DNA of 64,000 nucleotides from Akkermansia sp. (GCA_045614705.1 JAZLDM010000017.1:5263-69262); one strand, 5' to 3'; counted from the stretch's first letter, positions 1-44,905 are shown. Made by a program: numbers and translations. The notes: generated by a model from the letters alone, not told the origin.

Positions 1-96
1 CAGCAGTGACAGGCAGATGTGGCGTGTTTTCATAGGAAGATGATACACGCGAAAACCCCGCCGTGTTTAATATCTGTTACTGTTCGAATGGAGCGT

Positions 97-41622: not shown

Positions 41623-41629
41623 GGTAAAC

Positions 41630-42280
41630 TCAGTCTAGCGGGATACGGTAGTGCCCGGTCAGGGGGAAGGTGAATAGCTGCGGGTTTTCGCGCGTGCCAT
41701 TCCCCATGTTGTGTATGACCATGGGAGTGCCGCTCAGGTCGGCGCGATTGCTTACTATCATGATGTGCGGTCGTCCGTTGTGGGTGCGGCATGTTACGAT
41801 ATCTCCCGGTTTGTAGTCTGAAGGGGTTTCTGTTACGGGGAGACTCCACCCCCGGCGCTTGAAGTATACTTGCAGGTTCGGTACGCGGCGGTGGTCGATA
41901 TTTTTATCGGGGCGCTTGGCTCCCCAGTTTTTCGGGTAGGCGGCGAAATCGCGACTCATATCTTCGTGTACTGCTTGCTGCAAATCGAGCCCCTTGAGTC
42001 TCAGTGCGCGAATTACCACGTCTGTACATACGCCGCGCTCTATGGGGATATCTCCGCCCGGGTAGGTCAGTTTTTCATAAGCCGAATCGTACTTTAGCGT
42101 TACTCCGATTTGCAATCTCGCTTTCTCAGCCAAGTTGTCGGAGGCGGAGGGTATTGGGCGGTAGAACCCTGTGGGTAAGTATTGGCGAATATATGGTTGA
42201 TATGGGGATAGTACTGCTACGCCTATCGCTACCATTGCTAAGATGACAAGTGAGAAGGTGATGAAAAGGGCTTTTTTCAT
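41630..42280 (-). CDS. DUF1287-family protein (N-terminal TM/signal)
   Basis: YPGGDIPIERGVCTDVVIRALR...DLQQAVHEDM...NIDHRRVPNLQVYF...GDIV...HIMIVS...VIHNMGNG...LTGHYRI matches my recollection of the DUF1287 conserved blocks. Starts 18 nt after the nuclease-like ORF. Confidence 0.7.
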   Translation of the reverse strand: MKKALFITFSLVILAMVAIGVAVLSPYQPYIRQYLPTGFYRPIPSASDNLAEKARLQIGVTLKYDSAYEKLTYPGGDIPIERGVCTDVVIRALRLKGLDLQQAVHEDMSRDFAAYPKNWGAKRPDKNIDHRRVPNLQVYFKRRGWSLPVTETPSDYKPGDIVTCRTHNGRPHIMIVSNRADLSGTPMVIHNMGNGTRENPQLFTFPLTGHYRIPLD

Positions 42281-42298
42281 GGGGGGATGCTGGCCGCA

Positions 42299-43069
42299 TC
42301 ATGGTTTCTTTTTGCGGTCGGCGTGGGTACCGGTTTGGCCGGCTTCGCGTTCGGCGGCTCGCTGTTTCCAGAGCGGAACGGAGCTTTTGCGGGCTTTGGC
42401 TTTGCGCTTGCGTTCGCGCCGCTCAGCAGCGCGCGCTTGTTCGGCGGCTATTTGCTGTTCTTTTTCGCGGGCTCGCCGGGCTTCTTCGATGCGTTTTTGG
42501 ATGCGAGAGGAGTGCTCATTGCCGGCGGAGGTTATGGTCCATGGGCAGCGGGGGTCTGTGCCGGACTCTGTGATAGGCAGGCACACCATATCGGGGTCGA
42601 TGAAACGAATCTGCCGGTAGAGTAAATCTTTGATGGTGGCCAGCAGACTCTTCGGCGGGAAGAGCCCGGTGCGCGCCAGCTCAATGGTGAATGCCACGCG
42701 TATGTGCTTGGCCTGTAAGCTCATGCGGGCGATGTCGCGCAGGGAAATACCCTCTGCCGGTTCTTCCTCCGGAGCGCAAATGGCTGCTGCGCGCAGCAGA
42801 AAAAGGCAATCCTTCACCTTGCGGCACAGCTTGTCTACCAAATCGCGCACCTTGGGGCGGGCATTGAAGCGATAGTCCTTTACCTCGATAAGCCATAGCT
42901 CCTTCTTGCCCGGGTGATAGAGCACGAAATCCATCTCCTTGCAACTGCTGCAGAAATTCTGTGCATGGTGGGAGTAAAAGGGCGAGCACTCAAAACGGCA
43001 CACATAGTACCCGGCTTCAAAATTGAAGCGGTGCAAACCTTCCACACAACTGGTACCGGACTGAAACAC
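42299..43069 (-). CDS. Zn-ribbon plus PD-(D/E)xK nuclease-like protein with a ~70-aa Arg/Lys/Glu-rich tail
   Basis: 256 aa, GTG start 2 nt after the ATPase stop. Cys cluster C24-x3-C28...C40-x2-C43. MDFVLYHPGKKELWLIEVKDY gives D47-x14-E62-x-K64 in beta-strand context. Tail RIQKRIEEARRAREKEQQ...RRERKRKAKARK...DRKKKP. Confidence 0.6.
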   Translation of the reverse strand: MFQSGTSCVEGLHRFNFEAGYYVCRFECSPFYSHHAQNFCSSCKEMDFVLYHPGKKELWLIEVKDYRFNARPKVRDLVDKLCRKVKDCLFLLRAAAICAPEEEPAEGISLRDIARMSLQAKHIRVAFTIELARTGLFPPKSLLATIKDLLYRQIRFIDPDMVCLPITESGTDPRCPWTITSAGNEHSSRIQKRIEEARRAREKEQQIAAEQARAAERRERKRKAKARKSSVPLWKQRAAEREAGQTGTHADRKKKP

Positions 43070-43071
43070 GC

Positions 43072-44160
43072 TTATACCTGCTCTCCCAGTTCGAGGTTCA
43101 TATTGAGGTAGCGGTCAGCCTGCTCCATTTCGGCCTCCAGACTGGCAATGTGGTCGATTTCATCGAGGGTGCTACCGGTTGAGGTGCGTACTCCGCAGCG
43201 GTTGTCATTCGGCGGTTCCAGCCCGAAGAATTTGCGGCTCAGTTTGCCGTTCAGTTTATCGGCTAATTGGATAACCAGTTCGCGCAGCAGAAAAAGACTG
43301 TGGGTGGTGAGCATGAGTTGAATCCCGGCACGGCAGAGCCCCAGAATGATATTGACCAGCAGGGGCAGGTGGGTGGTGTTCAGGTTCATCTCCGGTTCAT
43401 CCCAGAAAAGCGTTGTACCGGCGCGCACGGTGCCATTGCCGATGAGTAATCCCAGTGTGCCGATTCGTTTGAAGCCTTCTGCTACCAAATTAAGCTCCAA
43501 CGGTTCTTGACAGGGGCGCTGTAAGTAAAAGCGCCCGTTGATGCGACGGAGTTTCCCTGACAGTAACGCTTCAATTTGCCGCATGACATAGCGCAGTGCC
43601 TCGGGCAGTGCCGCTCCGGTGGGTTCTTCCTCCAGCGCTCGGCAGAGTTCCCAGCTGGCAGAATCCAGCAGCTCGGGGTAACGCTTACCTGCCTGCATGT
43701 AGCAGGGGTAGATGGAGAGTACCTCGCGAGGTGAGATGAATACCGCATTCTCACTGAGAAATCTCTGGGGTAATTTTTTGATGTGCAAGCCCTCTTCTTC
43801 TTGGCCGGCGACAAAGCGGAAATCGAGTTCGGCAGCCCCGAGCGGTACTTTATACCCCTCGAGAGAGGCTTGCACGGCCGCTTGTCCGTTGCCTCGATTG
43901 CGTGCCGTGAGAGAGGTGAGACTGTGCGTGCCGAACACACGCAGCAAGTCGCGTCTCAGCCGTTTTTCTTCGGCCCACACCTCGGGCAGCTCGCGGCGAT
44001 TGCCATCGCAGCCCCATTTTGTGAGCGCATAGCAGAGCTTCATCAGGTGACTTTTGCCGGAATCATTACCACCTACAATGATATTGACTCCCGGCACAAA
44101 GTGAAATGCCTCTTGCTGAGGGAATACCGTTACGCCCTCCACTGCCAGCTTTCTTATCAT
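43072..44160 (-). CDS. ABC/SMC-like AAA_15/AAA_21-type ATPase (alternative start ATG 44169)
   Basis: Walker A GGNDSGKS, signature-like VAEGFKRIGTL, Walker B TLFWDEPE, H-loop LTTHS. Start placed at ATG 44160 (MIRKLAVEG...) because the -10 hexamer overlaps the ATG at 44169. Confidence 0.8.
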   Translation of the reverse strand: MIRKLAVEGVTVFPQQEAFHFVPGVNIIVGGNDSGKSHLMKLCYALTKWGCDGNRRELPEVWAEEKRLRRDLLRVFGTHSLTSLTARNRGNGQAAVQASLEGYKVPLGAAELDFRFVAGQEEEGLHIKKLPQRFLSENAVFISPREVLSIYPCYMQAGKRYPELLDSASWELCRALEEEPTGAALPEALRYVMRQIEALLSGKLRRINGRFYLQRPCQEPLELNLVAEGFKRIGTLGLLIGNGTVRAGTTLFWDEPEMNLNTTHLPLLVNIILGLCRAGIQLMLTTHSLFLLRELVIQLADKLNGKLSRKFFGLEPPNDNRCGVRTSTGSTLDEIDHIASLEAEMEQADRYLNMNLELGEQV

Positions 44161-44167
44161 GTCTGAC

Positions 44168-44196
44168 ATTCTACCTCATTTGTGCGTTGTTTGCAA
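44168..44196 (-). promoter_or_regulatory. Sigma70-like promoter in leaderless geometry (ATPase-nuclease operon)
   Basis: Minus strand: TTGCAA (44196-44191), 17 nt, TAGAAT (44173-44168), 7 nt, ATG 44160. Confidence 0.55.
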
Positions 44197-44230: not shown

Positions 44231-44260
44231 TTGCCTCGGGTGAGGCGGGTATGGTAAAAT
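44231..44260 (+). promoter_or_regulatory. Sigma70-like promoter in leaderless geometry (FKBP gene)
   Basis: TTGCCT (44231-44236), 18 nt, TAAAAT (44255-44260), 6 nt, ATG 44267. Confidence 0.5.
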
Positions 44261-44266
44261 GCGCTC

Positions 44267-44905
44267 ATGACCGATCAGGATAAAATGAAGAATGTGATGG
44301 GGTACCTCATCGGGTACCGTTTGGGTAGCCAGATGCTGCCGCAGATGCTCCCCGGTATCGAGGCCGACGACGTGGTGGCTGAGATGCTTGCCAAGGGCGT
44401 GAAAGACGGTATTGCCGGAGAGGCTGATATGAGCATTATCGATGAGAAGGTGGAGGAGTACCAGCAGGCTTTTGTCGCTATGTTGCAGGAGCGTGGTAAG
44501 AAGGTGGGCCAAGCCAACCTTGAGAAGGGTCGCCGCTACATGGAAGAGAACGGCAAGCGCCCCGAGGTGACCACCACTGAGAGCGGTTTGCAGTACGAGG
44601 TACTGACTGCCGGCGGTAGCGAGAAGTATGATGCCGCCGTGCATGGTGATGCTCCCACTGCCGAGGTGATGTACAAGGGCACGCTGGTAGATGGTACGGT
44701 GTTTGACCAGTCCCGCCAGCCTGTGAAGTTTAACATTCGTCAGGTTATCCCCGGCTTTACCGAGGCGCTTAAGCTCATGCCCGTGGGTGCCAAGTGGCGC
44801 GTAACCATCCCCGCCAACCTTGCTTATGGTGCCAACGGCCCCGGCAGCATTGGCCCGAACTCCACCCTCATTTTTGAGATGGAGTTGATAGGCCTCACCA
44901 AGTAA
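44267..44905 (+). CDS. FKBP-type peptidyl-prolyl isomerase (FkpA/Mip-like; no obvious signal peptide)
   Basis: C-terminal FKBP domain GLQYEVL...VMYKGTLVDGTVFDQS...VIPGFTEALKLMPVGAKWRVTIPANLAYG...LIFEMELI. Confidence 0.9.
   Translation: MTDQDKMKNVMGYLIGYRLGSQMLPQMLPGIEADDVVAEMLAKGVKDGIAGEADMSIIDEKVEEYQQAFVAMLQERGKKVGQANLEKGRRYMEENGKRPEVTTTESGLQYEVLTAGGSEKYDAAVHGDAPTAEVMYKGTLVDGTVFDQSRQPVKFNIRQVIPGFTEALKLMPVGAKWRVTIPANLAYGANGPGSIGPNSTLIFEMELIGLTK

Follow-up and report, generated by a model that had tools for sequence, protein, structure and literature searches.

A probable HEC-02-type anti-phage cassette of herbivore-gut Akkermansia with a lineage-specific cysteine cluster and basic tail

The bacterial system HEC-02 ('Hma-embedded candidate 02') combines an ATP-binding cassette (ABC) ATPase with a NERD-domain PD-(D/E)xK protein and is included in PADLOC-DB v2 (Payne et al., bioRxiv 10.1101/2024.01.29.577857). 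The tested pair comes from Dickeya dianthicola NCPPB 3534 and consists of WP_024108366.1 (342 aa) and WP_024108365.1 (169 aa) (bioRxiv 10.1101/2024.01.29.577857, Table S2). When cloned in E. coli, this pair reduced the number of plaques formed by several coliphages, and both genes were required for the effect (bioRxiv 10.1101/2024.01.29.577857). We found no literature on HEC-02 beyond this preprint. The RefSeq label of the Dickeya HEC-02B protein, WP_024108365.1, is 'cysteinyl-tRNA synthetase', which looks like a misannotation of a 169-aa NERD-like nuclease. Here we describe a cassette of two minus-strand genes, an ATPase gene followed by a nuclease gene (gene 2), in a 64,000-nucleotide stretch of Akkermansia sp. 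DNA (GCA_045614705.1 JAZLDM010000017.1:5263-69262), referred to below as the window. We conclude that this cassette is probably a two-gene anti-phage defense system of the HEC-02 type, positioned 'solo' among the housekeeping genes of an uncultured herbivore-gut Akkermansia.

The assignment rests on matches to HEC-02 models that span nearly the full length for both proteins. Among the PADLOC models, the ATPase matches the HEC-02 model PDLC04146 with E = 1.4e-64 (residues 4-357 of a 365-aa open reading frame [ORF]; model positions 1-342 of 344) and a second HEC-02 model, PDLC04213, with E = 1.4e-55. The gene 2 protein matches the HEC-02 model PDLC04145 with E = 1.2e-21 (residues 9-163; model positions 6-154 of 170), as well as four weaker HEC-02 nuclease models. 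Direct comparison by BLASTP leads to the same proteins: the ATPase is 31% identical to Dickeya HEC-02A over 356 aa (E = 1e-48), and the gene 2 protein is 29% identical to Dickeya HEC-02B over 178 aa (E = 7e-19; residues 6-179 against 2-167). The original prediction, made from the window alone, had proposed a candidate defense module that fits no named system. The first half of that proposal is retained, as anti-phage defense is the best reading by homology to HEC-02, whereas the second is superseded, because the PADLOC-DB models name both proteins HEC-02 and both match the validated Dickeya pair. What is already known is therefore HEC-02 itself, detected by PADLOC and validated in E. coli; what is new is an Akkermansia-specific cluster of four cysteines (Cys4) together with a basic tail on the nuclease.

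The ATPase gene (43072..44160, minus strand) encodes a HEC-02A-type ABC ATPase of 362 aa, the presumed sensor or regulator, and gene 2 (42299..43069, minus strand) encodes the HEC-02B-type nuclease of 256 aa plus a stop codon. The longest ORF for the ATPase runs from 43072 to 44169 on the minus strand, with its start extended to an ATG at 44169. We assign the start to the ATG at 44160 instead because 13 of 13 orthologs checked open at this position with MIRKL, MLREL, or MIKQL, because DNA homology between loci ends at 44160/44161, and because the PADLOC ATPase profile begins at the residue that this ATG encodes. The GTG of gene 2 lies 2 nt past the TAA of the ATPase gene, a gap consistent with translational coupling; at about 85 of 92 loci, the junction stays within the range −13 to +13 nt. 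Alignments of gene 2 with the PADLOC model and with the Dickeya protein begin at residues 6-9, which favors the upstream GTG/ATG start. Public gene calls for this protein are often only 195-217 aa long and start about 50 codons too late (P0030, P0033, P0052, P0069, P0113, and others); they begin at the alignment column of V49, printed as M, and so are without the Cys4 cluster and the catalytic D47, which is relevant to annotation. The G+C content of the gene pair (0.53-0.60) is native relative to its surroundings (about 0.55). The two tightly packed minus-strand genes, their coordinates and 2-nt spacing, and the native G+C content are all as first predicted, in agreement with the ORFs and ortholog starts, and every motif quoted at that time for the ATPase and the gene 2 protein was recovered by translating the exact coordinates.

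In Pfam, the ATPase matches only the generic AAA_21/AAA_15 families, and NCBIfam yields no meaningful match for the pair. Its motifs, all encoded on the minus strand, comprise the Walker A sequence GGNDSGKS (44050..44073), in which N32, G35, and K36 are invariant, including in Dickeya; an ABC signature-like AEGFKR (43465..43482) with A227, E228, and G229 invariant; the Walker B and D-loop segment LFWDEPE (43390..43410), in which L251, F252, D254, E255, P256, and E257 are invariant; and the H-loop TTHS (43297..43308), with S288 invariant and H287 conserved in at least 90% of sequences. Structure prediction by AlphaFold2 (AF2), run with database homologs, yielded a model with a mean predicted local distance difference test score (pLDDT) of 88.7 and a predicted template modeling score (pTM) of 0.88. 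The best Foldseek match of this model is the E. coli Septu protein PtuA (8eea_B; E = 3.6e-13, TM 0.54), followed by the heads of SMC and Rad50 proteins and by retron-associated PtuA. The sequence profile of the ATPase reaches the same proteins (PtuA, SMC, and Rad50) through the P-loop and signature/Walker B segments only, and direct sequence searches of the ATPase and gene 2 proteins against PDB chains returned nothing useful. The product of the first gene is an ABC/SMC-type ATPase with the AAA_15/AAA_21 layout originally proposed, as Pfam AAA_21 and the Foldseek matches to Septu PtuA, SMC, and Rad50 attest.

A second property of the ATPase is its variability. Across 82 distinct orthologs, its variability is 2.5 times that of the nuclease domain (1.05 versus 0.41 bits per site) and clusters away from the catalytic motifs, at residues ≈81-130, 181-220, and 301-340. 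Such a contrast between the two proteins is what one would expect of a diversifying sensor coupled to a conserved effector, and it agrees with the suggestion that inserts in the ABC protein set specificity (bioRxiv 10.1101/2024.01.29.577857). At some loci, an ATPase that is about 60% identical is paired with a nuclease that is about 78% identical, a hint of either faster sensor evolution or module exchange.

The globular part of the gene 2 product is a predicted NERD-like PD-(D/E)xK nuclease domain (residues 1-185; 42515..43069, minus strand), supported by the AF2 model, by conservation, and by a ratio of nonsynonymous to synonymous substitution rates (dN/dS) of 0.09, which indicates strong purifying selection. 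A HMMER search with residues 1-185 retrieved 266 representative relatives, and family-wide conservation was assessed in an alignment of 70 of these, down to 24% identity. The catalytic core, D47 ... E62-V-K64 (42878..42931, minus strand), stands out in the translation and in this alignment: E62 is invariant, and K44, D47, W59, L60, K64, D65, Y66, K84, E130, D158, and W177 are at least 90% conserved. It also agrees with the (D/E/Q)xK phosphodiesterase motif reported for HEC-02B (bioRxiv 10.1101/2024.01.29.577857). In the AF2 model (pLDDT 94, pTM 0.83), D47 precedes a strand formed by residues 48-52, and E62 and K64 lie within a strand spanning residues 57-66. The link to NERD runs through relatives only, 11 of the 70 matching the Pfam NERD model with a best E value of 5.2e-5, and seven of the 70 match DUF6661, whose function is not known. 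Weak matches of a few relatives are to Hjc, Mrr_cat_2, BsuBI/PstI, or HSDR_N, which we take to be PD-(D/E)xK families. The weak Foldseek matches of the gene 2 model that carry a name are almost all PD-(D/E)xK proteins as well (cap-snatching endonucleases, CdiA-CT, FAN1, MunI, HerA-DUF4297, McrC, Cas4, Mrr, and UL24), and a search of the PDB with the gene 2 family profile found nothing. Overall, the presence of the catalytic motif and the character of the weak structural matches are consistent with gene 2 encoding a strongly diverged NERD-like PD-(D/E)xK nuclease.

Two features set the Akkermansia nuclease apart, the first of which is the Cys4 cluster, C24-x3-C28 ... C40-x2-C43 (42941..43000, minus strand). 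All four cysteines are 100% conserved in 83 distinct proteins of the Akkermansia clade and are mostly replaced by other residues elsewhere in the family; Dickeya HEC-02B has one of the four, and the nearest tail-less relatives have two or three. Searches for zinc-ribbon Pfam families gave no significant match in gene 2 or its relatives. The 'Zn-ribbon' of the original prediction is not supported, since the four cysteines lie within the nuclease fold and are lineage-specific rather than making up a distinct ribbon domain shared by the whole family. This putative metal-binding cluster could plausibly form a structural metal site within that fold. In a distant relative of 196 aa (P0201), the loop that holds the Akkermansia cysteines contains a CxxC...CxxC insertion, NPICGNCNGVILCASCNHKN, and a metal site at this loop may have arisen more than once in the family.

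The second distinguishing feature is a basic C-terminal extension (residues 186-256; 42302..42514, minus strand) that is specific to the lineage and contains a predicted long helix at residues 188-227. Initially noticed as an unusual Arg/Lys/Glu tail of ≈70 residues, it is a genuine part of the protein: all 83 of the 83 clade proteins possess it, at a length of 60-99 aa, with 33% K/R, 15% D/E, and a net charge of +6 to +19. Toward its end lies a conserved motif, PLWKxR..ER..G (PLWKQRAAEREAGQT; 42332..42376, minus strand), of which P232, W234, R237, and R241 are invariant in an alignment of 17 sequences. The dN/dS of the tail is 0.28 overall, and because it is 0.35 in the variable part and 0.17 in the motif, we consider the tail to be a coding feature under selection. 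Plus-strand ORFs that overlap the tail (42243-42620, 42287-42625, and 42301-42573) were set aside as shadow ORFs, given that it is the gene 2 frame that is conserved and under purifying selection. About 60 distant relatives (165-185 aa) lack the tail, as does the validated Dickeya protein, and no PLWKxR..ER motif was found outside gene 2 orthologs in the 1.2 Mb of sequence examined. In the best 80 of 344 genome matches, the tailed form of gene 2 occurs in Akkermansia/Akkermansiaceae only. This basic tail appears to have been undescribed until now.

The cassette also seems to be equipped with its own promoter, as had been proposed. A consensus scan places this predicted, sigma-70-like promoter at 44168..44196 on the minus strand, with a −35 box TTGCAA (44196-44191), a 17-nt spacer, and a −10 box TAGAAT (44173-44168) that ends 7 nt before the ATG of the ATPase gene. 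Taken alone, TTGCAA-17-TAGAAT is a weak match to consensus (9/12). A block of ≈55 bp that contains it (cATTTc..aTTGymA, 17 nt, TAGAAT, 7 nt, ATG) is nevertheless kept where the DNA further upstream is unrelated. We surveyed the 60 nt upstream of the ATPase ATG at loci L001-L091. Of 81 distinct orthologous upstream regions, 61 carry the pattern TTGNNN-16..18-TANNN[T/G] with its end 6-10 nt from the ATG, compared with 1.2 ± 1.0 in shuffled sequences; at 12-18 nt from the ATG, the pattern has no matches. An extended −10 TG is present in 42 of the 61 promoter-bearing regions, and a Shine-Dalgarno-like tetramer of any sort occurs in merely 21 of the 81. The predicted promoter belongs to the cassette and travels with it. 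With a promoter 6-10 nt from the ATG and standard spacing rules, the predicted transcription start would therefore leave the ATPase mRNA leaderless or nearly so, and the nuclease would presumably be translated by coupling to the ATPase. Upstream of the FKBP gene at 44267 lies a promoter-like site of the opposite direction (window 44231-44260, plus strand; TTGCCT-18-TAAAAT, extended −10 TG), which shares a 106-bp intergenic region with the cassette promoter.

To describe the distribution of the cassette, we scanned one genome per GTDB species and obtained 344 gene 2 relatives, with details covering the best 80. These 80 are all from Akkermansia or Akkermansiaceae metagenome-assembled genomes (MAGs), mostly of herbivore guts, and the closest among the matches listed (99% identity) is from water-buffalo rectum. 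At least 80 of the 344 species-level genomes with a gene 2 relative thus belong to Akkermansia/Akkermansiaceae, a marked over-representation of one genus. The two genes are consistently linked: the ATPase gene is directly upstream of gene 2 and co-oriented with it in 91 of 91 loci, far beyond chance, which bears out the suggestion that they co-occur, and gene 2 is intact in every one of these loci, at 247-282 aa. The surroundings, in contrast, are not constant, with at least 21 upstream and at least 16 downstream flank types within one genus. Examples include ZnuABC with an integrase and type I restriction-modification (R-M) genes, ribosomal protein genes, MTHFR/TPR, SNF2/GDSL lipases, and nitroreductase/patatin. 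In the window, the neighbors are Mfd, FabH, a DUF6268 protein (possibly of the outer membrane), DUF1287, FKBP, and a RimO/MiaB-type enzyme. The window contains no tRNA gene, and Rfam gives no match between 40000 and 46000. The FKBP-adjacent site lacks the cassette in more distant Akkermansia contigs.

An association with defense islands in other genomes had been envisaged, and it is not borne out. The 96 flanking ORFs, from 37 flank types, are mostly housekeeping genes, and apart from one type I R-M locus, they yield generic helicase- or kinase-like matches. At that locus (L001:8766-16499; MAG GCA_964418985.1), found in one lineage and the sole clear defense-gene association among the contexts examined, the immediate neighbors of the cassette are a tyrosine recombinase and the full type I R-M set of HsdR, HsdM, and HsdS, after which comes another integrase. 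Neither IMG/VR viral contigs nor GenBank phages yielded a relative, and among 72,556 plasmids, only 2 contain one. The 24-kb plasmid p7 of Paracoccus sp. SCSIO 75233 (L122; NZ_CP115765.1:5252-6824) bears a tail-less HEC-02-like pair at 31% identity, in which a 354-aa AAA family ATPase overlaps a 175-aa hypothetical protein; YoeB/Phd toxin-antitoxin genes flank it on one side and a tyrosine recombinase on the other. The Akkermansia cassette is a relocating 'solo' unit and not part of an island, and its contexts agree with the report that HEC systems are solo (bioRxiv 10.1101/2024.01.29.577857).

By analogy with Septu PtuAB and PARIS AriAB, and with the proposal of the HEC-02 authors, an oligomer of the ATPase, like that of PtuA or AriA, may hold or gate the nuclease. 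Its fast-evolving inserts (residues ≈81-130, 181-220, and 301-340) would sense a phage product or a change induced by infection, whereupon the conserved nuclease would be released or activated, cut nucleic acid, and halt replication of the phage, perhaps sacrificing the cell. The Akkermansia nuclease would have gained the Cys4 site, probably for a structural metal, and the basic helical tail. We speculate that the tail either tethers the nuclease to nucleic acid or docks it on the ATPase and autoinhibits it.

Several observations weigh against assigning the cassette to HEC-02-type defense. Its identity to the tested Dickeya system is just about 30%, and anti-phage activity was shown for the Dickeya representative in E. 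coli only. The gene 2 protein of the window has no Pfam match at E ≤ 1, NERD PF08378 included, and Foldseek returned no significant match for its model (best E = 0.1 in PDB and 3.7e-3 in BFVD); the 'textbook' PD-(D/E)xK core claimed at the outset stands as regards D47, E62, and K64, which are conserved across the family, whereas the confident model of the fold is without a significant structural counterpart. The pair lies outside a defense island, its flanks are mostly housekeeping genes, and its G+C content is native, and with at least 80 species-level Akkermansia genomes, it is unusually widespread for an accessory defense system. Finally, the proposed mechanism of sensing and release is an analogy only. 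The breadth of distribution in Akkermansia/Akkermansiaceae, the native composition, and the housekeeping neighbors, along with strong purifying selection on the nuclease and an ATPase fold like the Rad50/SMC heads, would also suit a domesticated near-core module for DNA repair or surveillance, made up of a RecF/Rad50-like ATPase and a nuclease. We consider such a module improbable. A placement of the ATPase in a housekeeping RecF/RecN-like family, raised in the original prediction as a contrary outcome, was not found: scores for the NCBIfam repair equivalogs all fall far short of the cutoffs (Rad50, E = 0.099 and 10.6 bits versus 700; SMC, 10.1 versus 729; RecF not listed), and the ATPase is without a coiled-coil insertion and resembles such housekeeping ATPases in its head fold and P-loop only. 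The neighbors vary between loci, and a cassette that occupies at least 16 neighborhoods with its own promoter, and that is missing next to FKBP in more distant Akkermansia contigs, is unlike a core gene. Its closest characterized homolog, moreover, is a validated defense system. About equally improbable in our view is a selfish addiction cassette resembling a toxin-antitoxin system, in which the nuclease would be the toxin and the ATPase its antidote, with persistence through post-segregational killing. The pair is compact, tightly coupled, and often relocated, its Paracoccus homolog is plasmid-borne, with toxin-antitoxin genes and an integrase nearby, and Pfam AAA_21 is labeled 'AbiEii toxin, Type IV TA'. 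Toxicity upon induction with isopropyl β-D-1-thiogalactopyranoside is mentioned, however, for HEC-03 and HEC-04 only and not for HEC-02 (bioRxiv 10.1101/2024.01.29.577857), and the near absence of relatives from viral contigs, phages, and plasmids means that the cassette is not mainly on mobile replicons. Addiction and defense by abortive infection are in any case not mutually exclusive.

The proposal that the DUF1287 gene (41630-42280, minus strand; Pfam PF06940, E = 5.5e-68) might be a third component fares worst, and a functional three-gene module is highly improbable. This gene shares the strand of gene 2 and begins 18 nt downstream of it, without a terminator-like site in the gap. DUF1287 also comes after the pair at most syntenic-clade loci (at least 91% identity), often as two tandem copies, and at L010/L011. 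In about 65 of 91 loci (about 70%), however, no DUF1287 gene is found near the pair. The closest relative, L012, is 99% identical and collinear with the window through the stop codon of gene 2 and then lacks exactly the DUF1287 gene, as a clean indel of ≈670 bp. DUF1287 has no match in PADLOC, and its N terminus, as read from the sequence, contains a hydrophobic signal- or anchor-like segment that suggests an extracytoplasmic location, unlike that of its two cytoplasmic neighbors. With the validated HEC-02 system composed of two genes, we regard DUF1287 as a neighbor and not a component. Its copy number varies among close relatives, from none in L012 to one in the window and two tandem paralogs in most syntenic loci (window 41623-42291 compared with L012:6769-6820 and L013-L028). 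A more serious contender than any of these is that the cassette derives from HEC-02 and yet works differently, the tail and Cys4 site having changed the target or the control of the nuclease, so that the clade forms a subtype of its own. The retention of the tail in all 83 clade proteins under a dN/dS of 0.28 (0.17 in the motif), its invariant P232, W234, R237, and R241, and the complete conservation of Cys4 in the clade all speak for this view, as does the fact that the Cys4 set and the tail are missing from the tested Dickeya protein and the tail from about 60 distant relatives. The catalytic core and ATPase nonetheless align end to end with canonical HEC-02, and charged helical tails can be mere spacers or solubility elements, such that we hold a distinct mechanism to be possible but rather unlikely. 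With similar reserve, we entertain a bolder version in which the structural Cys4 metal site of an Akkermansia HEC-02 subtype and its tail, with the terminal PLWKxR..ER serving for docking, would rewire either targeting (to DNA, RNA, or ribosomes) or control (the ATPase sequestering and then freeing the tail), and in which the cassette, with its own leaderless promoter, would have spread through nearly the whole genus and become the dominant defense of gut Akkermansia against phages. An HEC-02-type defense system that operates as a two-gene solo unit remains the reading we prefer.

The main value of this assignment is corrective, in that the pair is HEC-02 and not a new defense system. HEC-02 has one tested representative, to which the Akkermansia clade adds more than 80 diverse natural variants. 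The combination of variable ATPase inserts and a conserved nuclease points to surfaces that are likely to sense, and the basic tail, its C-terminal motif, and the Cys4 site offer concrete handles on how the ATPase controls the nuclease. Akkermansia is a therapeutically interesting gut commensal, and a solo defense cassette that is widespread in it is relevant to the ecology of its phages and to efforts to manipulate the genus genetically or with phages.

Among other described systems, Septu (PtuAB) provides the closest solved structure to the ATPase model, in PtuA, and follows the same two-gene logic of an ATPase and a nuclease, as do the PtuAB effectors of retron I-A. The Septu partner PtuB is an HNH protein, however, whereas the partner here is of the PD-(D/E)xK type, and neither Pfam nor PADLOC gives it an HNH match. 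The 25 best PADLOC matches of the ATPase include no PtuA model, and the sequence likeness is limited to the P-loop and the signature/Walker B region. PARIS (AriAB) likewise joins a small ABC ATPase to a separate nuclease effector, and the PADLOC model of AriA matches the signature/Walker B region (1.9e-13, residues 205-295). This match is only local, searches of Pfam and PADLOC with gene 2 turned up neither Toprim nor DUF4435, and nothing seen here points to an AriA-type scaffold or to release set off by anti-restriction proteins. The GajA models of Gabija weakly match the ATPase P-loop (residues 4-44), as does the HEC-01A model, also weakly, but the 362-aa ATPase has no fused Toprim domain and no adjacent helicase, GajB being a UvrD helicase. 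In HEC-01 and HEC-03, the ATPase is instead partnered by Toprim/DUF4276 and PIN effectors, respectively. With NERD PF08378 and other PD-(D/E)xK nucleases, the gene 2 protein shares a D...ExK core on consecutive β-strands, although it falls below detection for every Pfam model and has no significant structural match.

Dickeya HEC-02 is the nearest of all these systems, and its differences from the Akkermansia cassette are confined to particular features. The two Dickeya genes, which overlap by 4 nt, are adjacent and co-oriented as they are here. Four conserved cysteines in the Akkermansia nuclease correspond to one at the equivalent Dickeya sites, and the basic extension of 60-99 aa with its PLWKxR..ER motif follows a domain that in Dickeya HEC-02B ends at residue 169. 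The cassette described here, known from its sequence, is not inside an Hma, R-M, or BREX locus, and its host belongs to the Verrucomicrobiota rather than the Proteobacteria. In both systems, an ABC ATPase of about 350 aa is directly followed, in the same order, by a small NERD-like PD-(D/E)xK protein, and both proteins align end to end with the catalytic ExK and the ATPase motifs in common.

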